The position numbers were made by a program, and so were the translations under genes. Below the pieces are notes generated by a model, which did not search any database, was not told where the DNA came from, and worked only from the letters and a program-made list of their open reading frames with translations. From a phage, in the sequence record PZ452610.1: DNA of 64,000 nucleotides. One strand, 5' to 3'. Shown here piece by piece: positions 1 to 64,000 of the stretch; position 1 is the first letter of the stretch, and each line of letters begins with the position of its first letter.

Positions 1-53
1 AGTGATACAAATATTGTTAAAAGACCAATTCGGTTGGTTTCGCCTAATTTCAT
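1..53 (-). CDS. hypothetical protein, N-terminal fragment (gene runs off window start)
   Basis: ATG at 53..51 (MKLGETNRIGLL...) with GAGGAG RBS and early promoter cassette upstream; continues past position 1. Confidence 0.35.
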   Translation of the reverse strand, partial: MKLGETNRIGLLTIFVS

Positions 54-73
54 AATATTCTCCTCATGTTTTA

Positions 74-110
74 ATAGGACTACTATAACATAGTCCTATC
101 AGTTTGTACA
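74..110 (-). promoter_or_regulatory. early-type promoter with palindromic stem-loop (PeSL-like cassette)
   Basis: Inverted repeat TAGGACTA/TAGTCCTA around minus-sense TATAGT -10, -35-like GTACAA ~17 nt upstream. Confidence 0.5.
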
Positions 111-111
111 C

Positions 112-312
112 TTATTTTGACATTTCTTCGATATCACGACGATACCCGTCACGAACTTCACGAAGAGCTTCAAGGCCACACATAGGCTCGATGCCAGTAA
201 TGTGAACTTGATTAATCTGATACTCTACATCTTCTAACTGAGCGAAAATGTAACGACGTTCTGCTGCACAGCCAGGTTTAGCTTTACCGAAACGTTTATT
301 CAAAGTAGTCAT
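112..312 (-). CDS. hypothetical small early protein
   Basis: ORF 112..333; preferred start ATG 312 (MTTLNKRF...) preceded by GGAG RBS; same leader/ATG ACT start as ORFs at 4923 and 41355. Confidence 0.5.
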   Translation of the reverse strand: MTTLNKRFGKAKPGCAAERRYIFAQLEDVEYQINQVHITGIEPMCGLEALREVRDGYRRDIEEMSK

Positions 313-343
313 TTTGTATCTCCATTCACTCATTTGTTTTGAT

Positions 344-379
344 AGGTCTATAGTATCAACAACTACAGACCTTGTAAAC
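344..379 (-). promoter_or_regulatory. early-type promoter cassette
   Basis: plus gtaaac (minus GTTTAC -35) and tctatagta (-10 region) upstream of ORF 112..312. Confidence 0.45.
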
Positions 380-391
380 AGTTTGGTGAAA

Positions 392-1348
392 TTATTTGAA
401 AGGTTTTACCATATGAAAATTTTGTTTGAAACGCTTGACGTAATCGTCGTGTCCTAAGCTTTGATACATACTTACTACTTTGCCATAGTTCTCCCAGGCA
501 TACTCACGGAACCAGCCTGATGTGATTGAAGTACAGACCTTTTCTAATGCCATCATAAAACTATCACGAGGATGGATTTCAAAGCCATTAGGAATCTGAG
601 AACGTTCTAACGCTAGTACACATGTTTCTTCATATACACCGGCCAATTTGACCATTTCCGGAAGTGATTCAAACTTCTCGCGTGAGGTCATTACTTCAGA
701 ACCGTCTTTCATATAAAACGTATAAGCCGGACGGTCTGTTAGTGCAATGGCTTCATGAATAGTATCATGGTCATATGTATAGATGTCATCTTTAAAGAAC
801 GCACTTTTAGAAGTGTCAAGAACCGGGTGAGCATAGTTCAAGGTTTCTTTCTGGCGTTTCAGCATAATTTCAGTAAGTTCATCGTTAAGTGTAACACCTT
901 TACCACGAAGATACTGAATATGGTTCATAGTCTTTAAAAAGAATGGATTATTTTTCTTGAAACGATGAGACATCTTAATTGCAAGACATATCTCAGGAGT
1001 TGCCCAGTAAAACCCGTTCAAACGGTCTTTAGTCAAATTTTTCTTGGCGTATTTTAAAAGGTCATAAGAAGACGTGAAATCTTCAGGAGTGAGTTCACCG
1101 ACTAATTCACGGACATTAGTGATTGCCGGAACAATATATGCTTCAAAATGAGTTTCGCGTCCATTATGGAAGCATTTGAAAACTTGGACATCAGGGTTAT
1201 CTTGGTGAACATATACACCCATCATTTGATTTTTGAATGCATTCCAAGAACCTTGGTCCGCAATAAAGTCCCAATCACTATTTTTAATAGCGCTAGAATC
1301 AATAAGACCGTGATAGTGAAGTGCACGAGAACCAATAACTAACATCAT
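392..1348 (-). CDS. hypothetical protein, possible nucleotidyltransferase-fold N-terminus
   Basis: 318 aa ORF, ATG ATG start with GAGGAA RBS; N-terminal GS...SDWD arrangement loosely resembles Pol-beta-type NTase motif (weak, from inspection only). Confidence 0.6.
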   Translation of the reverse strand: MMLVIGSRALHYHGLIDSSAIKNSDWDFIADQGSWNAFKNQMMGVYVHQDNPDVQVFKCFHNGRETHFEAYIVPAITNVRELVGELTPEDFTSSYDLLKYAKKNLTKDRLNGFYWATPEICLAIKMSHRFKKNNPFFLKTMNHIQYLRGKGVTLNDELTEIMLKRQKETLNYAHPVLDTSKSAFFKDDIYTYDHDTIHEAIALTDRPAYTFYMKDGSEVMTSREKFESLPEMVKLAGVYEETCVLALERSQIPNGFEIHPRDSFMMALEKVCTSITSGWFREYAWENYGKVVSMYQSLGHDDYVKRFKQNFHMVKPFK

Positions 1349-1376
1349 AATATTTTCCTCGGATTAATTCATTAAC

Positions 1377-1616
1377 TTAAATTTCACGACATGCGATATT
1401 ATATTCATCCCAGAGGTCATCATGTGAAGCCTCTACCAATGGAACGATTGTACCGTTTATGTCTTCATTATAAGGGCAAATTGTACAGTGCGCATCTTCG
1501 AATCGGATGCCTTTGTGTTCAGATTTTTTATAACGCATATCGAATATCTTTGCAAACTTTTCACGAGTAATGGTTTTACCAACCACTTTGGTTCCGATAC
1601 TTTCGTAATAAATCAT
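1377..1616 (-). CDS. hypothetical protein
   Basis: 79 aa ORF immediately downstream of early promoter cassette 1636..1674; Cys-containing (CTICPY). Confidence 0.5.
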   Translation of the reverse strand: MIYYESIGTKVVGKTITREKFAKIFDMRYKKSEHKGIRFEDAHCTICPYNEDINGTIVPLVEASHDDLWDEYNIACREI

Positions 1617-1635
1617 TGTGGACTCTATTTGTTTT

Positions 1636-1674
1636 GATAGGACTACTATAACATAGCCCTATCTTGTTGTAAAC
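1636..1674 (-). promoter_or_regulatory. early-type promoter with palindromic stem-loop (PeSL-like)
   Basis: gataggactactataacatagccctatc palindrome plus gtaaac (-35 GTTTAC on minus). Confidence 0.5.
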
Positions 1675-1678
1675 TGTT

Positions 1679-1876
1679 TTAGCAAGAATAACTAGATGAT
1701 ACCCAGCCTTGAACAGTGATACTATTGTGGGATAATGAGATCGCGTCCTGGAGATTCAGACCTGCGTTATCTTCAATCCATAATGTAACTTCTTCGCGTT
1801 CTTCTGTTGCAATTTGGAACAGGTTTTCCAGAGCAGCTACTGCCGTACGTACAGCACAATCTAATTCGCGAGACAT
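1679..1876 (-). CDS. small protein with conserved C-terminal GWVSSSYSC tail (family member 3)
   Basis: 65 aa; ATG at 1876 preceded by TAAGGAA; C-terminus shared with the two upstream ORFs. Confidence 0.6.
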   Translation of the reverse strand: MSRELDCAVRTAVAALENLFQIATEEREEVTLWIEDNAGLNLQDAISLSHNSITVQGWVSSSYSC

Positions 1877-1885
1877 ATTGTTTCC

Positions 1886-2158
1886 TTAGCAAGTGTGAGA
1901 AGATGCGACCCAACCACCAGTTTCGAGGCTCAGGTTGTAGTCGTATTGGTAAACGTCAGCCCATTCAGCATAACCGTTTTTTGTACAACGTTCAAGATCG
2001 GCTTTAAGATGTCCGGGTGAATGATAGGTTCCACCCATACCATAAGCTGGGTACAAGTTGAATGTTGTGTTTTGTTTATCAGCAATTTCTTTGGCAGCCT
2101 CAATAGCTGCATAGATTTTTGCTACAGCTTCAGCCAGTTCGGTTTGTTCTTTAGACAT
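1886..2158 (-). CDS. small protein with conserved C-terminal GWVASSHTC tail (family member 2)
   Basis: 90 aa; ATG at 2158 preceded by TAAGGAA; translationally coupled to neighbours. Confidence 0.6.
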   Translation of the reverse strand: MSKEQTELAEAVAKIYAAIEAAKEIADKQNTTFNLYPAYGMGGTYHSPGHLKADLERCTKNGYAEWADVYQYDYNLSLETGGWVASSHTC

Positions 2159-2167
2159 AATGATTCC

Positions 2168-2473
2168 TTAGCACAACGCAGAAGACGAAACCCAAGCACC
2201 TTCAGTAATAACGTAACCATTACCTTCACGCTTAACATCACCACCATTATTTTCAATTTCATTTTTCATCCACTGGGATACGATTTCACCCTTAGGATAA
2301 TAAGTACGACCGCTACCATAATCACCTACAGAAAATGATACGGCATATTGGTCTGCGATCTTTGTTGCTTCTTCTTCGATGCGTTCAGCTTGATTCAGAA
2401 GTTTATAAATTGCATCTGAAGCGGATTTGGCATCATTAAACTCTGGTACTTTAATTTCAATAATCTTACTCAT
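2168..2473 (-). CDS. small protein with conserved C-terminal AWVSSSALC tail (family member 1)
   Basis: 101 aa; start overlaps stop of upstream ORF (ATGA); shares GxxYxPxG and C-terminal tail with paralogs. Confidence 0.6.
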   Translation of the reverse strand: MSKIIEIKVPEFNDAKSASDAIYKLLNQAERIEEEATKIADQYAVSFSVGDYGSGRTYYPKGEIVSQWMKNEIENNGGDVKREGNGYVITEGAWVSSSALC

Positions 2474-2829
2474 TTTCTACATTCCTTAATAAAGTTTTCG
2501 ATTGTTTCATTTTCACGTTTAGCTAGGAGTTCATTATAACTAATCATTTGAGAAGCGTAAACCTTTTTATTTTTCTTGTTATGGTTTATAAAATCGTAGT
2601 AAAAATAGACTACAGTACAAAATGATGCGATGGATGCAAAGGCTTGGGTATACCGTAAGTCCTGCCATTGGTCTGTGAATCCGCCAGTGTTCCCTATAAA
2701 TCCTAACACAACGCCGTCAATAAGAAATCCAACTAATCCAAAGGCAAATCCCATGCCAATACTCATAATAAAAATTAGAATGTTCTCACCAAGAGAAGGC
2801 CATACGGTTAAGAGTTGAGGCTTTTGCAT
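2470..2829 (-). CDS. putative small membrane protein
   Basis: 119 aa with long hydrophobic stretch (IFIMSIGMGFAFGLVGFLIDGVVLGFIG). Confidence 0.55.
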   Translation of the reverse strand: MQKPQLLTVWPSLGENILIFIMSIGMGFAFGLVGFLIDGVVLGFIGNTGGFTDQWQDLRYTQAFASIASFCTVVYFYYDFINHNKKNKKVYASQMISYNELLAKRENETIENFIKECRK

Positions 2830-3023
2830 CTTATTTCCTTAACGAATTCCATAGCTTCTTCATATTCATACTTTTTAACAGCTTCATCATACTGAGCTTG
2901 GGCTTTTGCGCACTGAACTTTCCATTCTCTTAATCGGGCTCTGTGATGACGTCCTTGGTACCAATATCCCATCCAGTTAATAGGCATTAATAAAAACGGT
3001 ACAATAAGTGGTGCGACGAACAT
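2808..3023 (-). CDS. putative small membrane protein
   Basis: 71 aa, N-terminal hydrophobic helix (FVAPLIVPFLLMPINWMGYW) then charged tail; weak RBS. Confidence 0.45.
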   Translation of the reverse strand: MFVAPLIVPFLLMPINWMGYWYQGRHHRARLREWKVQCAKAQAQYDEAVKKYEYEEAMEFVKEIRCKSLNS

Positions 3024-3064
3024 TAATGAAAATGCTGCATCAGACGATATAACTTCACTAGAAT

Positions 3065-3205
3065 CTAAAACGGCTCCCCTATAATCATAAAGATTAAAAA
3101 TGCTAAAGCTAAAATAGGGCCAAATAGTACTTCATTTGGGATTAATTTACGCTTGTATTCATATGCCCAGGGCTTAATTGGCATGTACAGGGTTGGCTTT
3201 GACAT
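3065..3205 (-). CDS. possible 46-aa membrane peptide
   Basis: ATG at 3205, hydrophobic core VLFGPILALAFLIFMIIG; overlaps 3' end of ORF 3174..3770; weak RBS. Confidence 0.25.
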   Translation of the reverse strand: MSKPTLYMPIKPWAYEYKRKLIPNEVLFGPILALAFLIFMIIGEPF

Positions 3206-3770
3206 ATTCTCTACATTCCATAATAAATTGCTCAAGGATTAAATTGTTAGTGAAATTAGGACTAACAACCATAGTTTCATAAAGCGCATCAATAGCACTT
3301 AAAGCATCAACTCTTTTAAGCAAAGGCTTGCCTTCATACATAGTTTCAGAATCGACGATTAACGTAAAGTAGTATTTTTTATTATCGACTAGAACTTCTG
3401 TATCGATATAAAACATATTAGACCTCAGAAGCTTATCTCTAAAACCATAATAATCTTCAGAGCGTTCGCTAATATATTCCCATTCGGTGTTTAAACAACA
3501 AACAGACCACGTAGGAGCAACGAAATCAGTGAATCTAATATCATGGTCTACAACTAGTTTAGCAATAGCTCCGATATCATGAATCATAATACCCGGGGCT
3601 AATAAAGATTTTCGGTTATTTGCGTATTCAGTTGTCTCATAAGAAGACGACCAGTACCATTTACGCCCGGTTGCAACATATCGTAATGAATCAACTAAAG
3701 ACGTAGGTGGATTTACCTTATCTCGGAACTCTTCGAACATTGAGTCAATATCATTATTTTGGTTTCGCAT
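3174..3770 (-). CDS. hypothetical protein
   Basis: Track ORF 3174..3791 starts at TTG; preferred ATG 3770 (MRNQNND...) with AGGAG RBS directly after terminator hairpin. Confidence 0.6.
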   Translation of the reverse strand: MRNQNNDIDSMFEEFRDKVNPPTSLVDSLRYVATGRKWYWSSSYETTEYANNRKSLLAPGIMIHDIGAIAKLVVDHDIRFTDFVAPTWSVCCLNTEWEYISERSEDYYGFRDKLLRSNMFYIDTEVLVDNKKYYFTLIVDSETMYEGKPLLKRVDALSAIDALYETMVVSPNFTNNLILEQFIMECREYVKANPVHAN

Positions 3771-3789
3771 GTTAACTCCTTTATTATCC

Positions 3790-3811
3790 AAAAGGAGGAC
3801 CGGAGTCCTCC
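3790..3811 (-). terminator. rho-independent terminator hairpin
   Basis: GGAGGAC-cgga-GTCCTCC perfect hairpin; T-run on minus strand downstream. Confidence 0.6.
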
Positions 3812-3819
3812 GTATTATT

Positions 3820-4413
3820 TTATTTCAAAGAGTTAATATATTCTTGTACATCAGCAGAAGTGGTTTCGACACCGGCTGGAGTGCCATTGAATGTTTCGAC
3901 ACGAGTCAGAGTGTCTTCGATATCAACCTTAGTCAGTGCAGCAATTTCAATCACATCATCAGCCGTAGAGATACCAAGAGCATTGGCTGCTCGAGTTTCA
4001 CGAATGTATTCGAGTTTGATTGCCAGATTCTGACGAGCATCATCAAGTTCAACCACCTTACGAGCAATTTCAATTCGCATAGCGGCATAACCGTCAGCTT
4101 TTGTATTAAGTTGTTCGGCAGTTCGACGATACAGAAGACCAAGCTTAGCATGCATGGTAACATCTTGTCCTTCAGCCAGGAGCTTACGAATTTCACGTTC
4201 CTTAGAAGCGGCTTGCTTGTTCTTTTCATTAACAAGTTCGCGAATACGTTTTTCTTCATTAATAGATTTAACAGAAGCCGTTTTTAGTTCTTTGATTTGG
4301 GTAATCAACTTATCTGCGGCTGCGTTATACTGTTCTTCGACAGTCAGATTTTTAGCCATAGCAGTACCCAGTTTAGTGCGGATGAATTCAACAAGTTTCT
4401 TCAGTGTGTTCAT
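3820..4413 (-). CDS. coiled-coil protein (PspA/IM30-like appearance, unverified)
   Basis: Track start is TTG at 4428; preferred ATG 4413 (MNTLKK...); heptad-rich, highly charged sequence. Confidence 0.55.
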
Positions 4414-4483
4414 ATTATTACCTTTCAATTGGTGGTTTATTATCCAACGAGAGCATTATACTCTGCTCTCAAGAGTTTGTAAA

Positions 4484-4711
4484 TTATTTTTTAATCAAAT
4501 TGACATAAAACTTGGCGTCTTCGGGGTGCATGCCTTCGCAGTATTCTTCAACCATGAACTTCTTAACAGCTTCATAAGGACCACTCAGATTAAGCTCAGT
4601 TGTCCAGAACTTGGAATCTTGTACTGAATCGATACGAACTTCAGGGTGACGGTTGCGAATAACTTCTTCTGTGTATTCATAATCAACGACATCAATACTA
4701 ACTGTAGCCAT
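4484..4711 (-). CDS. hypothetical protein
   Basis: 75 aa, ATG with GAGGAG RBS, promoter-like element 4736..4770 upstream. Confidence 0.55.
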   Translation of the reverse strand: MATVSIDVVDYEYTEEVIRNRHPEVRIDSVQDSKFWTTELNLSGPYEAVKKFMVEEYCEGMHPEDAKFYVNLIKK

Positions 4712-4735
4712 TTTGTTTCTCCTCTCGATTTAATG

Positions 4736-4770
4736 TGATTACTATAACATAAACTTACTTAGATGTAAAT
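4736..4770 (-). promoter_or_regulatory. early-type promoter
   Basis: minus-sense ATTTAC ... TATAGT upstream of ORF 4484..4711. Confidence 0.4.
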
Positions 4771-4923
4771 TATTTCAACGTCACCTTTAGCTGCTTTATA
4801 ACCTTCAGCCCAAGATACAACAGAGTTTTTATCTGAGGATTCAAATTCAGGCATTGGACTTTCACCAATATTCACACAGTATGTTTCTTCATTTTCATCG
4901 AACCAAATAATTAAAGTAGTCAT
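4759..4923 (-). CDS. hypothetical 54-aa protein
   Basis: ATG at 4923 (MTTLIIWFDENEETYC...) with AGGAG RBS inside the 47-bp cassette; below track length cutoff. Confidence 0.45.
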   Translation of the reverse strand: MTTLIIWFDENEETYCVNIGESPMPEFESSDKNSVVSWAEGYKAAKGDVEIIYI

Positions 4924-4963
4924 TTTGTTTACTCCTCTGTAGTTGATAAGTCTATAGTATCAC
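4917..4963 (-). repeat. 47-bp promoter/RBS/start cassette, identical copy at 41349..41395
   Basis: tagtcattttgtttactcctctgtagttgataagtctatagtatcac identical at both loci by direct comparison. Confidence 0.85.
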
Positions 4964-4991
4964 CATCCTTGGTGCTTGTACATCATTATTT

Positions 4992-5297
4992 TTAATTTTT
5001 CCAACTTAACAACTTGTAGTGTCCTTCATTCGTACGAGGTTTATCCCAAGAAATACTAATATATGATTCGCTATCAATAGAAGTCGCCGGGTTTTTCTCT
5101 ACCGTAAGACCTTCACTTTCCAGCCATTCAATAGTATTTGCGCATAAATCTGAAGAACACCTCATCGGAAACTGGCAAGATTTTTCACCTTTAGATGCTG
5201 CATCGTACATCTTTTCTAAAATACGCTTTTGCACGTTTTTAAAAATAGTTTCAGCAGATTCTTCAGATTTTTTATTCAGTTCAGTGTAAAGACTCAT
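4992..5297 (-). CDS. hypothetical protein
   Basis: 101 aa ORF, ATG at 5297 with GAGGAAAA RBS and cassette 5316..5354 upstream. Confidence 0.55.
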   Translation of the reverse strand: MSLYTELNKKSEESAETIFKNVQKRILEKMYDAASKGEKSCQFPMRCSSDLCANTIEWLESEGLTVEKNPATSIDSESYISISWDKPRTNEGHYKLLSWKN

Positions 5298-5315
5298 AAC
5301 ATTTTCCTCTATGGT

Positions 5316-5354
5316 TGATAAGTCTATAGTATCATGTCCTTAGAAGAAGTAAAC
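5316..5354 (-). promoter_or_regulatory. early-type promoter cassette
   Basis: ttgataagtctatagtatca shared 20-mer with cassettes at 4943 and 41376; gtaaac -35 on minus. Confidence 0.45.
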
Positions 5355-5390
5355 ATCTTTATGAAATATTTTTATGCCCTAGATACCAAA

Positions 5391-5414
5391 AGGCCCCAAC
5401 CATAAGGAAGGGGC
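5391..5414 (-). terminator. rho-independent terminator
   Basis: GGCCCC...GGGGC hairpin; minus strand followed by T-run (plus aaaa 5387..5390). Confidence 0.55.
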
Positions 5415-5420
5415 ATTCTA

Positions 5421-5885
5421 TTATTTAATTTGTTTAGCAGACCAGATACGGTCTTTAATAAGTTTTTGGATATCTTCAACATACTCAAGGCTATGAGCGT
5501 GAGGATTATCTTTGAAGCTATGTGCTCGTGCCAGTTTCTGGCCTTCTGTTTTGATTACTAAAAGCTCTTTAAGAATTGCTTCATACTTAGAAATAATTCC
5601 TTTGGCGATATTTTTTTCTTGAGCTGCTTTAGGGTCTGTTTTTGGCGCAGGTGCTTTACCTGTAGCTTTCTGGAACAATTCACCTGATGCAGCTAGGCTT
5701 TTAAAAACTCGGCTAACAGTATTAGCATTAGTAAAACCTTCGGCTTTAAAATCTCTAATAAAACGGAAACGTTCTTCATCAGAGGCGTCTTTGTAAGAAT
5801 ATTTACCTGCTTGAATTGCTGCAATCGCAGCGGCTTTTACATCTGAACTAGATTGTTCAGTCAAAAATTCAGCGTATGATTTCAT
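5421..5885 (-). CDS. putative capsid-packaged internal protein (CTS-like N-terminus)
   Basis: N-terminus MKSYAEFLTE resembles T4 internal-protein capsid targeting sequence MKTYQEFIAE with LxE cleavage site; basic 154 aa. Confidence 0.55.
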   Translation of the reverse strand: MKSYAEFLTEQSSSDVKAAAIAAIQAGKYSYKDASDEERFRFIRDFKAEGFTNANTVSRVFKSLAASGELFQKATGKAPAPKTDPKAAQEKNIAKGIISKYEAILKELLVIKTEGQKLARAHSFKDNPHAHSLEYVEDIQKLIKDRIWSAKQIK

Positions 5886-5930
5886 GTTGCTTTTCCTAAG
5901 TTAATTAACTTATCTATTTATTATTATGCC

Positions 5931-5957
5931 AAAAAGCCCCGACCTTTCGGAAGGGGC
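5931..5957 (-). terminator. rho-independent terminator
   Basis: GCCCC-gacctttcggaa-GGGGC hairpin; TTTTT on minus strand. Confidence 0.6.
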
Positions 5958-6269
5958 TAAGCCTTGCGGCAACCTTGTCGGGGTTCCACCTGCTAAGGCA
6001 AGTGTTTGTACGAAACGCCGGGATTCGAACCCGGTTATTAAGCAGTTGACGCTACTCAATATTTTTAAAAGGCCATATCTCGACCATATCCGAACGTTCC
6101 GTCAAAAACGCTACTCGGCTTACGGCAAAGATATTTCCTCGAATCGATAATTCTGTGCGCCGTTTCTGCTGTGATGTAAGGGGATATTAACAAATCGTAA
6201 AGATTTATTAAGACCAGTCCTTACTCAGGGAACATCAGTCCGACGACTTGCCGGTAGCGACCCGGCTTC
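5958..6269 (-). ncRNA. non-coding structured region with tRNA-like T-arm hairpin (possible small stable RNA or tRNA remnant)
   Basis: No credible ORF; minus-sense CCGGG-TTCGAAT-CCCGG canonical T-arm at 6016..6032 but no canonical cloverleaf; bounded by terminator. Confidence 0.3.
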
Positions 6270-6614
6270 TTATTTTGACATATCATCAATTTGCTCTCGA
6301 CGCCGACGCCATAGATTAATCGCTTCATTAACACATTCGGCGTTTGGTATATGACGGCAATAATATAATGATTCGCGTTTCTGGAACCGATGTTGCAATG
6401 GAATTTCGTTTAAAAGGTCTTTACGGTCAAAGTATTCAAAACCGGTTAACCCAGAACGGTTTTTAAGAAACTTCCAATGTCCGAATTAATTTTGAAAATA
6501 AACATAATCAGCATGTTGATATAACGAATTAATCAACCGGTCGGAAATAACTGTTTCACGTTCGTTAAAATAAAACGTTAAATCATGAACTACCAGATAA
6601 ACATTGCCTTTCAT
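6270..6614 (-). pseudogene. ORF interrupted by in-frame TAA (41 codons, stop at 6488..6486, then 72 sense codons)
   Basis: Same frame read through by eye: MKGNVYLVVHDLTF...YFQN*FGHWKFLKNRSG...DDMSK; second part has no ATG start. Confidence 0.45.
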
Positions 6615-6632
6615 ATTTTCCTCACTTAAAGT

Positions 6633-6709
<77 letters not shown>

Positions 6710-6712
6710 GAT

Positions 6713-6789
6713 TGGTGACCCAGACCAGATTCGAACTGGTAACCTTTCCCTTATGAGGGGACTGCTGCTAACCATTGAGCTACAGGGCC
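6713..6789 (-). tRNA. tRNA with CAU anticodon (Met or Ile-type)
   Basis: Canonical T-arm ACCAG-TTCGAAT-CTGGT, anticodon loop CUCAUAA, encoded CCA; acceptor and D stems have mismatches. Confidence 0.5.
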
Positions 6790-6794
6790 TAAAT

Positions 6795-6850
6795 AACTTT
6801 CTATTATGAAAGGCACTTTAGAGCACCTTTGGTAATAGAGGGTATGAATT
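6795..6850 (-). promoter_or_regulatory. sigma70-like promoter upstream of tRNA pair
   Basis: minus-sense TTACCA ... 17 nt ... CATAAT ending ~14 nt before tRNA 5' end. Confidence 0.3.
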
Positions 6851-6868
6851 AATAATAACACATAATTT

Positions 6869-7384
6869 TTAAAGCAAATCAATCATTTTAACAGTCGGCA
6901 AAACGATTTCTTCTTCAATATAAGCAAATTCAACACATTCAACTACACGCAAGAAATCATAATCATAATATTCAGAAGCATGGCCAAGAATATCAATGAG
7001 ACCTTCTGATACTAAATATCCGTTCTCACGGAACAGGTCAAATACACGTGATTCGTCTTCTTCAGATTTATTACCAAGGTCAACTTCAATATCAAAGACC
7101 TTTTTAATGAATTCTGGATAAAGATGGTCTGAGAACAGTCCTTCAACCAGATATTCGTAGATAATAAGCGAGCAATCACTGAATGGTGTATTACCACAGT
7201 AACGTTCAGCTTTAGTGCTAGAATGACTACTCTTAAATTTCTTCAAGAGATATTTAAACTGTTGGAGCTCATGCTCTTCTACACCAAATAATGTTTTGGT
7301 TTTATAGCTGTCGCCGTCATTTTCCGAAGTAGTGACATCAATTACGTAACCCTTAGGAATTGTACTACCTAAACAAATATTCAT
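6869..7384 (-). CDS. hypothetical protein
   Basis: 171 aa, ATG start; last gene of a 4-gene coupled operon. Confidence 0.55.
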   Translation of the reverse strand: MNICLGSTIPKGYVIDVTTSENDGDSYKTKTLFGVEEHELQQFKYLLKKFKSSHSSTKAERYCGNTPFSDCSLIIYEYLVEGLFSDHLYPEFIKKVFDIEVDLGNKSEEDESRVFDLFRENGYLVSEGLIDILGHASEYYDYDFLRVVECVEFAYIEEEIVLPTVKMIDLL

Positions 7385-7388
7385 TTAC

Positions 7389-7679
7389 TCACCGTACCAT
7401 ATTAATGTAGTTATATTCAATGCAACGTAATTTCAAAGGGTTCTTGAAAATATCATATTCAAGAGGGCCTGATTCAGTTTCAATAAAGAAATCAAAATTA
7501 ACTGTGTTAAATTTATTGTCTTCACAGAGTAATTTAACCTGTGAAGATGAACGGTCGATATAAACCTTTTCAACCTCAAAGTTAGTCAGAATACCGTAGT
7601 CATCGACTAGTGCTTTAGCTGCACGTTGGTCGCTTTCATATCCATTCTCAACGGATTTTACCTTAGCATAAAGAATCAT
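7389..7679 (-). CDS. hypothetical protein
   Basis: 96 aa; ATG overlaps stop of upstream ORF (ATGA). Confidence 0.55.
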   Translation of the reverse strand: MILYAKVKSVENGYESDQRAAKALVDDYGILTNFEVEKVYIDRSSSQVKLLCEDNKFNTVNFDFFIETESGPLEYDIFKNPLKLRCIEYNYINMVR

Positions 7680-8038
7680 GAATGTTCCACCACTTCAAAG
7701 GTATGAGCATCAACAATATGGTACCAGTCAAAATTTTCTTCCGCGTTTTTATAAATTTCGCGAAGAGCCTCAACAGTTTTTCCTGTAGCAACAAGGTCGT
7801 CAATACCGCCAAGAGGATAACAGTCGTAACCGGCAAACAGAATGAAATTAATAGTTTCTGTAGGGGCCGGATGCAGTGTACCATTGTCATCGACTACTTC
7901 AAAGAACATATAACCAGGCGATTTAGATTTAATCCAAGCCCATGCTTGAGCTGCTGAATCAAATGGTCTGCGTATCAAACGACAATCAGGGTCTTTAGAA
8001 GGATTTGCTTCAAAATCCGCATATACGTGATATTTCAT
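7676..8038 (-). CDS. hypothetical protein
   Basis: Track start is TTG at 8071; preferred ATG 8038 (MKYHVYADF...) with AAGGTGAG RBS right after upstream stop. Confidence 0.55.
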   Translation of the reverse strand: MKYHVYADFEANPSKDPDCRLIRRPFDSAAQAWAWIKSKSPGYMFFEVVDDNGTLHPAPTETINFILFAGYDCYPLGGIDDLVATGKTVEALREIYKNAEENFDWYHIVDAHTFEVVEHS

Positions 8039-8039
8039 T

Positions 8040-8225
8040 TTACTCACCTTTTGCAATTTTATCCATAACAATAGCGATTAAACCGATTAGAAATGCTACT
8101 ACCAATGAGATAGAATTTTCAGTTGTTGTCAGTAGTCCGCAAATGAATCCTACAAACATCGAAAAACTAAAAGCCATTGAAGCAATTACTACAGCAACAT
8201 TACGAATCAGTTCAGCGCGTTTCAT
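8040..8225 (-). CDS. small membrane protein
   Basis: 61 aa, two hydrophobic segments; promoter cassette 8249..8285 upstream. Confidence 0.5.
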   Translation of the reverse strand: MKRAELIRNVAVVIASMAFSFSMFVGFICGLLTTTENSISLVVAFLIGLIAIVMDKIAKGE

Positions 8226-8248
8226 TTTATTATCCTCTCATGTTTTGA

Positions 8249-8285
8249 TAGGACTACTATAACATAGTCCTATCATCATGTAAAC
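8249..8285 (-). promoter_or_regulatory. early-type promoter with palindromic stem-loop (PeSL-like)
   Basis: gataggactactataacatagtcctatc perfect palindrome; minus GTTTAC -35 and TATAGT -10 with 18-nt spacer. Confidence 0.55.
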
Positions 8286-8287
8286 TA

Positions 8288-8551
8288 TTAAATACCAGCT
8301 TCGCGTTTAACATAATCGACGTAAGCTTGGATAGCTTTCTTGCTGGTAATTTTTACCTGGCCACGACCATTGCCTTCTTTAGAGTTTTTCTTAACAACTA
8401 CATTACCATCTTTAACACCCCATACATGGACGTAAGTACCGATGTTTCGGTCGTAGAACATTGCATGGTCATTGTTGTAAGAGAATGATTCATAGTTCTC
8501 TGTCAAAGCAAAAGATTCGGATTCTGCGATAAATTCTTTATACGTTTTCAT
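8288..8551 (-). CDS. internal protein (capsid targeting sequence MKTYKEFIAE)
   Basis: N-terminus matches T4 IP capsid-targeting sequence with LxE/IAE cleavage context; 87 aa. Confidence 0.7.
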   Translation of the reverse strand: MKTYKEFIAESESFALTENYESFSYNNDHAMFYDRNIGTYVHVWGVKDGNVVVKKNSKEGNGRGQVKITSKKAIQAYVDYVKREAGI

Positions 8552-8574
8552 TTATTTTTCCGTTTGGTTGTTTT

Positions 8575-8613
8575 GATAGGACTACTATAACATAGCCCTA
8601 TCAAGATGTAAAC
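8575..8613 (-). promoter_or_regulatory. early-type promoter with palindromic stem-loop (PeSL-like)
   Basis: ttgataggactactataacatagccctatc plus gtaaac. Confidence 0.5.
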
Positions 8614-8616
8614 TAC

Positions 8617-8904
8617 TTACAGAAGAGTTTTTGCAATAATTTTAAGCTGAGCTACAGAAATATGCTTAGCTTTAAACAGTGCGGTCTCTTCAGCCGGAGA
8701 GATAACAATAGTAGCGCCATCTTTCTTAGCAGACCATCCATCCCCTAAGTAAACAGTACCTTTTACTTCTTCGCCGTCAACCAGACTAATCATTGGTTTA
8801 CCCTCACGTCCTTTATTTGCTTTAATAACTTCGGAAGTAAGGGTTGCTTCGGTCAGAGTAGAAACGTTAGCAACAGGTGATATAAATTCTTTATAGGTTT
8901 TCAT
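8617..8904 (-). CDS. internal protein (capsid targeting sequence MKTYKEFI)
   Basis: N-terminal CTS-like MKTYKEFISP...LTE; 95 aa; ipII/ipIII position next to 57B. Confidence 0.7.
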   Translation of the reverse strand: MKTYKEFISPVANVSTLTEATLTSEVIKANKGREGKPMISLVDGEEVKGTVYLGDGWSAKKDGATIVISPAEETALFKAKHISVAQLKIIAKTLL

Positions 8905-8930
8905 TTTATTTCCTTGAGGTTGTTTATTTG

Positions 8931-8969
8931 ATAGGATGATAGTATCACACCATCATACTTATGTAAACT
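8931..8969 (-). promoter_or_regulatory. early-type promoter cassette
   Basis: gataggatgatagtatcac plus gtaaac; near-identical to element at 57003..57041. Confidence 0.5.
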
Positions 8970-8981
8970 GTTTTGTGAAAA

Positions 8982-9667
<686 letters not shown>

Positions 9668-9671
9668 TTTA

Positions 9672-10406
9672 TTACCTTAAGATTGTTTCAATTTTAGAAT
9701 AAAGCTCTTCTAAAGAGCCGTCGTTTGTAATAACTAAATCGCCTTCTTCAATAGGCAACCCAGCTTCTGTAATATGTTTATCAGTGGATTCCGTACCAGA
9801 GCGAACCACATGAATAACTGTAGCACCCATCGCTCTAGCGGTTTCCATTTCATGGACTTGGCGTGTATCGGTTACAACATAGTAATCGAAATCACTTCCA
9901 ATATAATCCATATAGTTTAATGCAAAAAGTTTAACCCAATACATACGGTCAAATAAATTAACGACAACATCCGTACCGAGGGCTTGCATAAGACGGCGGA
10001 TTGACCATGTGTCGTTGATATTATTTATAGCTTCACGCAGGGCTTCATACGGTTTAATATCTAGATATGAATACCCACCTTCTAAGGATGATAATACTTT
10101 AACATTATTAATTGGTAAATATTGACTTTGTAAATAAATTAGCGCTTCTTCCAATAATTCAATAACATCCAACTTATTGAGATTTAATGGTGTTTCACGG
10201 TCATATCCGACACCTTCAAAGTATTCGTATTTCAACTCTGTGAATACATTAGGGTTTTCGGCATGTTTACGTCCCCAGGCTATTGCTAGAGCGTCTTTAA
10301 TCGGATATGCCAATTGGTATTTTACGGATTTAAAGTTTGAATTGATGTAATCAGCAGTGGTGTCTTTACCACTACGTTTGACGCCACTTAAAAAGATTAG
10401 CTCCAT
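9672..10406 (-). CDS. 1: gp1 deoxynucleoside monophosphate kinase
   Basis: 244 aa; N-terminal P-loop LSGVKRSGKDT; T4 synteny 57A-1-3-2-4. Confidence 0.85.
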   Translation of the reverse strand: MELIFLSGVKRSGKDTTADYINSNFKSVKYQLAYPIKDALAIAWGRKHAENPNVFTELKYEYFEGVGYDRETPLNLNKLDVIELLEEALIYLQSQYLPINNVKVLSSLEGGYSYLDIKPYEALREAINNINDTWSIRRLMQALGTDVVVNLFDRMYWVKLFALNYMDYIGSDFDYYVVTDTRQVHEMETARAMGATVIHVVRSGTESTDKHITEAGLPIEEGDLVITNDGSLEELYSKIETILR

Positions 10407-10459
10407 AGGTTTTCCTCATATAATTTATGAGTGATTATAACATACGGAGCTAGAAGCGA

Positions 10460-11044
10460 TTAACGCAAGGAAGGGTGTCTAGAAATGGATTTAGATTCGA
10501 CTGCTTGACGTGGTTGTTGAGATACAATGACTTCACCATCCTTTTCTATCGTCATATACGCATAGTGAATAGTTGCTACGCACGTAACGGCAGGGTCAGA
10601 ATCTTCAGTGTAACTAAATTCAATTTCGCTCAGATCGGAAATCCATGGTTTATAGAAATTTGCCGTCAAAACTACTTCTGTCTTATTGTTATTTAAAATG
10701 TGCAAAGTAACAAACTCAGGACCATCGGAGTGGGCAGTATTATGTCCGGTTATATAGTTATTAGTGCTGAGCATCCATTTATACATGTTCATCCAGGACG
10801 TCATGTCTTCATCAACTATAAATCGTACAATAAAAGGGTCGTATTCAAATGTGGTGCCTGCACGCATTGCACGTCCTAACCCCATTGTGCCTGTCACAGT
10901 TTCAACAACAGGAATTCTCACACCTGGCAACGGTGCCGTTTGAGCATTGAGCACAAAACCCGAAGTTCGTGTACTATCTGGGATATCCACAACAAAGTTT
11001 GTTATATTTGTTTGGTTAAAAATCTGTCTCGTTGGACGAGTCAT
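10460..11044 (-). CDS. 3: gp3 tail completion / sheath stabilizer protein
   Basis: Track start is GTG at 11050; preferred ATG 11044; position between genes 1 and 2. Confidence 0.75.
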   Translation of the reverse strand: MTRPTRQIFNQTNITNFVVDIPDSTRTSGFVLNAQTAPLPGVRIPVVETVTGTMGLGRAMRAGTTFEYDPFIVRFIVDEDMTSWMNMYKWMLSTNNYITGHNTAHSDGPEFVTLHILNNNKTEVVLTANFYKPWISDLSEIEFSYTEDSDPAVTCVATIHYAYMTIEKDGEVIVSQQPRQAVESKSISRHPSLR

Positions 11045-11146
11045 AAGCACCTCAAAAACGCTTTAATAAAAATGCAGTATAATGGTTTTAGGTCTCTTCC
11101 ATTAATCTGGTTCAACAGAATATCAGAAGAACGGAAGAGAATAGAA

Positions 11147-11968
11147 TTAAGATTTCCAAACAGTATTCGCAGAGAAACGTTTTCCTTTTGACATAAATTG
11201 CTGAGTAGGTAACATGATTATGTTAGCCCAGTCTTTAGGAGCTATTTCTGTTATTGTTCCTCTAATGTGGCCTGGCAGGTATGCTTTAATCATTTTGTCC
11301 GCACCTTGAAATCCTTTCACCTTGCTCCAGTCTATCTTCAACTTTGTGTTATTAGTAATAGTAGTTGTGCTAGCATATTGCTTCAGCAATTCTTCAAGAA
11401 ACTGTTGTCGTGCTTTAGGTGGGATATAGTGCAAGTTTAACCCATACATCAAATTATGTTTACCTAATCCTAAATAAATAATCAAAGGATATCTGTCCCA
11501 ATACGGCAGAGTATCTTTATGTTTAGCATCATACACGTAAGTATAAATTTTGCCTGGCGTAGGCTTGACTACTTTATGACCTTTTACACTTTTCTTAATT
11601 GTTTCAACAAACCACTTAGATGATTTGTTGTTTACTGCTGCGCCTTCATTTCTAATCTTTTCTCGTATTGAACTGCGAAACGAGTTTATCATCAGAAGTT
11701 GACGTTCTTGCTTATTGAGTTTATTTTTAGGTTTAGATTCAAGCGTTTCAATTTTCTGTGCAGTCTTAATAGATGATGCATATCTAGACATTGCAGATGT
11801 AAACGACGAGTATTTTATTCCTTTTGATTCTGCAAATGCTTTTGCAGTGATTCCTTTCTCTTTAGCTTTCTTGTATTCTAATCCTATCTCAATCCATTTT
11901 CTTTCATTCATAGACTGAGCAATCTTAGGGGCTTGTACGCCTTCAGATATAATTTGGAATATGCTCAT
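11147..11968 (-). CDS. 2: gp2 DNA end protector protein
   Basis: 273 aa (T4 gp2 ~274), basic; synteny. Confidence 0.8.
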
Positions 11969-11970
11969 AA

Positions 11971-12420
11971 TTACCCCTTGTATCCGAGTTTTCTAAGACC
12001 ATCTTCGGTTAGAACTCGAAATTTTATATTTCTCTTTTCAGCAACAGCTGAGGCAGCTTTCCATTTGTCACAGTTCACAGACCAGGTATATATTTCATTC
12101 ATATAACGTTTCTTTGCTGCGGTAGTAAGATTTGCGGGCTTAATAGGTGGTTGAGTTTCTTTCTTTGGTTTTATTTCTACAAAGAACTCTTGACCTGATG
12201 CATCTTTCATCCATATGTCCATATAGTATCGACGTTTCTTACCTTCAGCATTACAAAAATATGGAATTACTGCTGTTTCACTACCCCATGCAATAATTTC
12301 TGGATTTTTATCCAACCATTCGAAAAAGAATTTTTCCCAGTTTGAACGATACGTTATTTTGGTATGGTCTCCACGGTATTTTTTTAAATTTTTTGGGACC
12401 CATTTACCAGAGTAGGCCAT
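11971..12420 (-). CDS. 4: gp4 head completion protein
   Basis: Preferred ATG 12420 ([11 protein letters not shown]...) with GGAGGA RBS gives 150 aa as in T4; track ORF 197 aa uses upstream non-ATG. Confidence 0.85.
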
Positions 12421-57002: not shown

Positions 57003-57041
57003 GATAGGATGATAGTATCACACATCCATGTGCTTGTAAAC
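57003..57041 (-). promoter_or_regulatory. early-type promoter cassette
   Basis: ttgataggatgatagtatcac ... gtaaac; overlaps alt stop codon. Confidence 0.5.
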
Positions 57042-63897: not shown

Positions 63898-63944
63898 TTG
63901 TTTGTTGGTACAGGTCTATAATAACATAACCTGTACCAAAGTAA
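63898..63944 (-). promoter_or_regulatory. early-type promoter with palindromic stem-loop (PeSL-like)
   Basis: GGTACAGGT ... ACCTGTACC perfect 9-bp inverted repeat around TATAAT/TTATAG, gtaaac -35. Confidence 0.5.
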
Positions 63945-64000
63945 ACTGTTTTATGCAACTTTAATCCAATTGTCTAAATTTAAAACACCTTTGGCTTTCA

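Follow-up and report, generated by a model that had tools for sequence, protein, structure and literature searches.

The locus and its source

The stretch analysed here, a 64,000-nucleotide window of phage DNA (record PZ452610.1), begins with an accessory island in which short minus-strand elements combine an early promoter with an inverted repeat. The island covers the e.2 … frd.3 … tRNA … ipI … 57B region and is rich in small hypothetical open reading frames (ORFs), and the promoter-repeat elements occupy the short gaps preceding small minus-strand early genes. Positions 1-9000 are 100% identical, with two 1-nucleotide (nt) gaps, to Escherichia coli O157 typing phage 3, a Mosigvirus (RB69-like T-even phage). 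As the window is the reverse complement of ~19742-83739 in the typing phage 3 record, the early genes lie on its minus strand. The 57B-ipI-ORF87-trna.4 locus of the window is the T-even internal-protein locus.

Early promoters of the island

The original prediction placed early promoters at nine sites (74, 344, 1636, 5316, 8249, 8575, 8931, 57003 and 63898; Table 1). Indeed, T4-type early promoters are found at all nine, without exception on the minus strand. The -35 element is GTTTAC, except for GTGTAC at 111..106, and the -10 element is TAnnnT, mostly preceded by TGn. The two are separated by 18 nt, but by 17 at 5354 and 63946. A conserved start region (…CCTATCAA) follows the -10 in the early promoter cassettes, and a Shine-Dalgarno sequence and ATG lie 26-41 nt beyond the -10. 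Each of the nine sites is laid out as a cassette running from a stop codon to an ATG; for example, the stop codon of the upstream gene (TAA, 114..112) abuts the -35 at 111. The promoters also match the published consensus of promoter-early stem-loops (PeSLs), namely an A/T-rich upstream region, TTTACW, a 17-nt spacer counted from TTTACW, and TAYWAT. The pattern GTTTAC-N18-TAYWRT has nine matches in the window, exclusively on the minus strand, where 0.14 are expected, and the 24-mer forming the palindromic core, TAGGACTATGTTATAGTAGTCCTA, occurs four times at no more than one mismatch (0 expected).

The proposed dense tiling of the left island is borne out as well. Ten promoters lie in positions 1..9000, each preceding a small early ORF, versus four in the remaining 55 kb. 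Three of the island promoters, all on the minus strand, had been overlooked in the first reading: 4484..4443, which carries a repeat, and 4770..4741 and 2562..2533, which do not. When the complete phage record was scanned with sequence-neutral criteria, ~47 early promoters were found on the early strand, 12 of them with a hairpin z below -3. Genome-wide, the share of early promoters bearing the repeat is roughly one quarter to one third. The ORFs following repeat-bearing promoters are the smaller ones (median 87 vs 122 amino acids, p = 0.02).

Strength and geometry of the inverted repeat

Hairpin strength was assessed as folding energy with shuffle controls (z). An inverted repeat had been claimed for all nine sites. 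It is strong at six (74, 344, 1636, 8249, 8575 and 63898), with energies of -15.2 to -18.0 kcal/mol and z of -5.2 to -6.4, marginal at 8931, and at shuffle level at 5316 and 57003; a stable stem-loop is thus present at six of the nine sites, and additionally at 4484. The arm at 8931 is broken by one G-to-T change relative to AGGATGATGG/CTATCATCCT of RB69, DCP548 and SA79RD, and the RB69 counterpart folds at -15.4 kcal/mol. The stemless promoters 5316 and 57003 resemble what Comeau et al. 2014 describe as 'degraded' or half PeSLs.

The arms measure 9-13 base pairs (bp) and enclose loops of 6-8 nt, and the A/T-rich stems contain 2-4 G·C pairs. As predicted, the repeat is centred on the -10: the dyad falls between -12 and -11 at most sites, and 3-4 nt farther upstream at 344. 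Positions -27 to -17 of the spacer form the left arm, and the discriminator together with the start site (-8 to +3) forms the right arm. A dyad scan of the genome yielded a single sharp peak at -11.5, where 11 of 47 promoters have at least six consecutive Watson-Crick pairs; permutations in which left and right arms were drawn from different promoters gave 2.95 (maximum 7 in 200). A rigid single-dyad model was tried and rejected as too strict, since Tequatrovirus promoters use -14.5.

Evidence for an RNA helix

The sequence of the arms varies while their position does not. Arms in this phage include TAGGACTA, AGGTCTGTAG, TTGGTACAGGT, GGAGCA/GAGAGC, GGTGGAGTT and AGGATGAT, and with unchanged geometry T4 has TGATGAGGTA, ATAGGGT, ATAGGCT and CTAGAATTGTGA. 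Across this phage, RB69, T4 and metagenomic relatives, at least eight unrelated arm sequences occupy one register. It had been anticipated that the proposal would fail if the repeats were lost from orthologous promoters; instead, T4 and RB69 retain the repeat at the same loci with differing arms. The right arm coincides with the conserved discriminator/start region, which is present also in promoters without a left arm.

Covariation was examined in an alignment of 68 promoters of this phage, RB69 and T4, picked irrespective of the repeat. In the register tested 57% of cells are paired, against 32-46% in slid registers, and the covariation score is 0.248 versus 0.205 for shuffled alignments, with none of 500 shuffles reaching it. 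Among 37 distinct promoters with at least eight paired positions, the isolated transition mismatches on the early-sense strand comprise 12 G·T and no A·C, an asymmetry equivalent to about 9 independent events (p ~0.002-0.0002). Because G·T but no A·C mismatches occur on the sense strand, the object under selection would be an RNA hairpin; the wobble asymmetry points to a helix in the early transcript rather than to a protein operator or a cruciform.

By the numbering of RB69, whose promoter logo has C at -3 to -1, the predicted +1 falls within the right arm, at the A of ATCAA. With the start site so placed, the hairpin could form only in read-through RNA and never in the transcript of the promoter itself.

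Exchange of cassettes between relatives

The suggestion that the palindromes are recombination hotspots was followed up by comparing window positions 1-10500 with JK45, DCP548, SA79RD and RB69, and is supported. In five to six of the eight indels or replacements between this phage and the four relatives the junction lies inside a cassette, with clean hybrid cassettes at the joins; the chance of at least five of eight is ~0.004 by a rough estimate. The five cassette-internal events concern ORF 112-333, an extra ORF of SA79RD, ORF 8288-8551, ipI, and the extra internal-protein ORF156 of RB69. At the ORF 112-333 locus RB69 keeps a single cassette, with window segments 1-111 and 373-5309 adjacent (BLAST). 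The extra ORF of SA79RD was inserted with a crossover in the -35 of the 4484 promoter, and the single SA79RD cassette at the ORF 8288-8551 locus is a precise hybrid of the two in the window. In DCP548, which lacks ipI, the join is within the flanking cassette plus leader. A sixth junction, at 5309, abuts the 5316 promoter. Two events are clearly elsewhere, one within an ORF and one at a segB-like insertion in the tRNA region.

ORF 8288-8551 (ORF87) and ipI share the start MKTYKEFI…, the internal-protein leader. With MKTYKEFIAE corresponding to the cleavable leader of encapsidated internal proteins, ORF87 is probably an unannotated internal-protein gene beside ipI. It is found in 29 phage records, versus 155 for the neighbouring 57B gene.

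Metagenomic relatives vary at the same locus. The 57B gene was used to retrieve 33 IMG/VR loci, in which 0, 1 or 2 internal-protein cassettes lie between 57B and trna.4, every one of them preceded by such a promoter. Further arm families are present, and the folding energy is -10 kcal/mol or lower for 27 of the 44 promoters. Among the weak ones, several are chimeras that combine the left arm of one hairpin family with the right arm of another, implying crossovers within the loop or the -10 region. Such chimeras, in which the repeat is destroyed, are seen at ~3450-4600 of loci L145, L150 and others (e.g. ATAGGGTA … TACCTCATCA). An IMG/VR scan with GTTTAC-N18-TAYWRT-N6-ATCAA gave, among the matches listed, which are mostly due to chance, energies of -8 kcal/mol or lower in 11 of 55 promoter-like matches versus 6 of 64 chance ones, a small difference.

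Relation to known systems

The elements are already known: they are the PeSL or internal-protein-locus motif of Repoila et al. 1994, Arbiol et al. 2010 and Comeau et al. 2014. PeSLs were defined in RB49 and phi1 as having a stem-loop 'between the -35 and -10 or overlapping the -10' (Arbiol et al. 2010). In lacZ fusions these had promoter and terminator activity, the stem-loop of an RB49 PeSL lowering downstream lacZ about as much as rrnB T1, and crossovers were mapped to the loop in RB49; terminator activity and mini-circles were shown for RB49/phi1 only. According to the account of Repoila et al. 1994 given in Arbiol et al. 2010, PeSL-like elements occur at two variable T-even internal-protein loci as T4 early promoters with weaker, A/T-rich stems; these were termed analogues, not homologues, of the RB49 PeSLs. 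PeSLs were later described in T4/PST (TTTACW-N17-TAYWAT, AGNA-loop-TCNT) and in KVP40/nt-1 as well (Comeau et al. 2014), and AGGA…TCCT in the present phage fits the T4/PST stem consensus.

The T-even and T4/PST elements share with the present ones a T4-type early promoter overlapped by an A/T-rich stem-loop, copies on both sides of internal-protein genes that have a common N-terminal leader, and internal-protein genes whose number and identity vary among phages. Nothing essential differs, although this RB69-like Mosigvirus lies outside the published pairs and its most frequent arm (TAGGACTA/TAGTCCTA) is specific to the lineage. In the PST figure legend the stems are placed 'just upstream of the promoter', whereas those of T4 and of the present phage run from the spacer to +3. 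The RB49/phi1 PeSLs have the same composite of stop codon, A/T-rich region, -35, -10, stem-loop, Shine-Dalgarno and ATG, the same position of the stems (mostly between -35 and -10 or over the -10) and the same setting of hyperplastic regions beside small ORFans and indel junctions, but those of RB49 differ in a near-perfect sigma-70 TTGACA -35 and polyG/polyC stems.

Two further systems are similar in part. In T4 e, soc, 49 and I-TevI the 5' arm of a helix likewise lies upstream of an internal start site, so that only read-through transcripts fold, but these genes have a late promoter and a helix that occludes the Shine-Dalgarno or AUG. The hairpins described here end at +3 and leave the Shine-Dalgarno (~+12 to +20) free. 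Lambdoid 'morons' are also single accessory genes with their own promoter and terminator, but they have no conserved flanking repeat mediating exchange, and their G+C content is often different (discussed in Arbiol et al. 2010 and Nolan 2006).

Interpretation and alternatives

Collectively, the sites are most probably T-even-type PeSL cassettes, in which attenuating or capping hairpins would be coupled to recombinational shuffling, and not operators. Such a cassette is an intergenic linker of ~60-75 bp, comprising an A/T-rich upstream element, GTTTAC, TGn, TAnnnT and the conserved start region, and constitutes a strong consensus sigma-70 early promoter for the small early ORF that follows. The cassettes also form the junctions for the gain, loss and swap of ORF cassettes, notably internal-protein genes, among related phages. 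The present results, combined with the RB49 experiments, suggest that the hairpin attenuates read-through, or caps read-through RNA as a 3' structure, and that each small gene would thereby become a self-contained transcription unit. They further suggest that the repeated conserved cassette provides homology for recombinational shuffling. On read-through RNA a hairpin lacking a U-tract could act as an attenuator, as a protector of the 3' end (e.g. after RegB cleavage in the downstream Shine-Dalgarno), or in another way. Processing by ribonuclease III was rejected on general grounds, the stems being only 9-13 bp long.

Several observations weigh against this interpretation. Mutation from C to T that favours the non-template strand could account for part of the G·T bias, and one variant is represented by several copies among the G·T cases. 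Early promoters mostly lack the repeat, which is present on roughly one quarter to one third of them and hence is not needed for promoter function. As the hairpins have no T-run, efficient intrinsic termination is not expected, and the attenuator role is borrowed from the G/C-rich elements of RB49. Further, viability selection alone would also leave intergenic junctions, and contributes to their enrichment in cassettes.

It is unlikely that the hairpins are plain intrinsic terminators that chance to overlap the next promoter. This is how they appear in the SA79RD GenBank record, where the same intergenic hairpins are labelled with WebGeSTer 'rho-independent terminator' features, one of them overlapping an annotated T4-type early promoter, and the lacZ reduction by the RB49 stem-loop fits such a role. 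However, an intrinsic terminator has a G/C-rich hairpin followed by a U-run, while all of the present hairpins are A/T-rich and are followed by CAAAAC or similar in place of a T-run. A terminator consensus scan of 1..12000 called 18 sites and recovered none of the promoter hairpins, and their identity as canonical terminators was rejected. A genuine terminator in the same island looks quite different: a canonical bidirectional intrinsic terminator at 3794..3811 (both strands, GGAGGACCGGAGTCCTCC), with T-runs on each side, lies between the e.5 and e.6 homologues.

Recognition of the hairpins, as RNA or extruded DNA, by a phage factor that shuts off a subset of early promoters or directs an integron-like, targeted exchange of ORF cassettes appears improbable.

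The original prediction also raised an operator, in which the palindrome would be the symmetric DNA site of a dimeric phage or host regulator switching early promoters off or on. A protein bound to the repeat, which overlaps the core promoter, would obstruct RNA polymerase, a 28-bp version (GATAGGACTATGTTATAGTAGTCCTATC) is present in about 10 copies in the genome, and the shut-off of T4 early promoters is still unexplained (Hinton 2010). Nevertheless, an operator is very improbable. Rather than the same half-site at every regulated promoter, there are at least eight unrelated arms in one register, and most early promoters have no repeat at all. Mismatches that are G·T in 12 cases and A·C in none are unexpected for a double-stranded DNA site, and the half-site centres are ~17 bp apart, a spacing that is not an integral number of helical turns. 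The right arm is kept even where the left is missing, and so is a promoter/start-site element rather than a half-site.

Just as improbable is a DNA-level structure, in which a hairpin or cruciform extruded during replication and recombination would initiate cassette exchange through structure-specific cleavage or template switching, the RNA effect being incidental. The indel junctions within the elements, the crossovers in the loop or -10 region implied by the arm chimeras, and those mapped to the loop in RB49 would suit it, but a cruciform should tolerate G·T and A·C equally, and arms of 9-13 bp with loops of 6-8 nt extrude poorly. A weaker form, with the repeat as a passenger of a spreading cassette, is countered by the independent arm families of one geometry, which argue for selection on the helix.

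As PeSL cassettes, the elements would explain how T4-like phages can express dozens of tiny accessory genes one by one and still exchange them with ease. These genes include injected anti-defence internal proteins such as IPI, which matters for host range and for phage-therapy cocktails. Publications of 1994 and 2010 already set out the principle, and the present finding adds only another lineage. The additions made here are modest: a dyad fixed at -11.5 or -14.5, a start site in the right arm, and the sense-strand wobble bias.

Feature coordinates

Table 1. Promoter cassettes and associated ORFs of the window (folding energy in kcal/mol)
Feature	Position	Strand	-35; -10	Repeat arms	Energy; z	Gene or context
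Promoter-hairpin cassette (site 74)	70..111	-	GTGTAC 111..106; TATAGT 87..82	ATAGGACTA 99..91, TAGTCCTAT 82..74	-15.5; -5.4	drives ORF starting at 53 (RB69 ORF133c homologue)
Small ORF cassette	112..333	-				between cassettes 74 and 344; absent from RB69
Promoter-hairpin cassette (site 344)	344..379	-	379..374; TACTAT 355..350	AGGTCTGTAG(T) 372..362, (A)CTATAGACCT 354..344; one G·U pair	-15.2; -5.2	drives ORF 112..312/333
Promoter-hairpin cassette, family A with G·T (site 1636)	1636..1674	-	1674..1669; 1650..1645	TAGGGCTA/TAGTCCTA	-16.0; -6.0	drives ORF 1377..1616
Promoter-hairpin cassette, missed in first reading	4443..4484	-	ATTTAC 4484..4479; TATAAT 4460..4455	GAGAGC 4470..4465, GCTCTC 4454..4449	-12.6	
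Early promoter without -10-centred repeat (site 5316)	5304..5354	-	5354..5349; 5331..5326		-2.5; -0.1	
Promoter-hairpin cassette, family A (site 8249)	8246..8285	-	8285..8280; 8261..8256	perfect, 11-12 bp, 8275..8264, 8257..8246	-17.5; -6.4	drives trna.4 homologue 8040..8225
ORF cassette (ORF87, 87 amino acids)	8288..8551	-				begins with leader MKTYKEFIAE; lies between two near-identical cassettes; not present in SA79RD or RB69
Promoter-hairpin cassette, family A with G·T (site 8575)	8573..8613	-	8613..8608; 8589..8584	8604..8592, 8585..8573	-18.0; -6.2	drives ORF 8288..8551
ipI cassette (internal protein I, nuclease inhibitor)	8617..8904	-				leader MKTYKEFIS; absent from DCP548
Promoter with decayed repeat (site 8931)	8929..8968	-	8968..8963; TACTAT 8944..8939		-8.9; -2.7	drives ipI
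Early promoter downstream of alt (site 57003)	57007..57041	-		5-bp GGATG/CATCC match, chance level	-5.1; -0.06	
Promoter-hairpin cassette, unrelated arm (site 63898)	63905..63946	-	63946..63941; TATTAT 63923..63918	11 bp, TTGGTACAGGT/ACCTGTACCAA	-17.7; -5.3	drives gp30.7 homologue

Other elements

A second class of 'palindromic' early promoter carries in the spacer after the -35 an anti-Shine-Dalgarno string (TTCTCC…), 10-14 nt of which are complementary to the Shine-Dalgarno of the driven gene. Its members lie at NC_041863 positions 131011, 144056, 86655 and 89608, and at the T4 regB promoter (L010:2798), the regB arms differing between this phage and T4. They fold at -20 to -23 kcal/mol in read-through RNA and at ~0 in the promoter's own transcript, and share the logic of T4 e/soc/49/I-TevI, but with early promoters. 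Window 5304..5354 belongs here weakly: its spacer TTCTTCTAAGG (5348..5338) shows weak complementarity to the Shine-Dalgarno region of ORF 4992..5297 (CCATAGAGGAA, 5314..5304), with -11.9 kcal/mol for read-through RNA and -0.5 for the transcript of the promoter itself.

Within the tRNA region of DCP548, a 221-amino-acid ORF (8375..9040; window ~6661..6712) is inserted where T4 has the homing endonuclease segB, an indel unrelated to the promoter cassettes. An Rfam gathering scan of 1..12000 returned two tRNAs only and no family for the T4 small stable RNAs rnaC and rnaD. Homologues of both lie on the minus strand at window 6009..6147 (rnaC, 98.6% identity) and 6155..6273 (rnaD, 86.7%), in an ORF-free stretch downstream, in the direction of early transcription, of two tRNA genes; they are unannotated in the source record. 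Finally, record positions 11079, 12262, 100542, 142552 and 20881 (L002, L004) match a different PeSL subclass.

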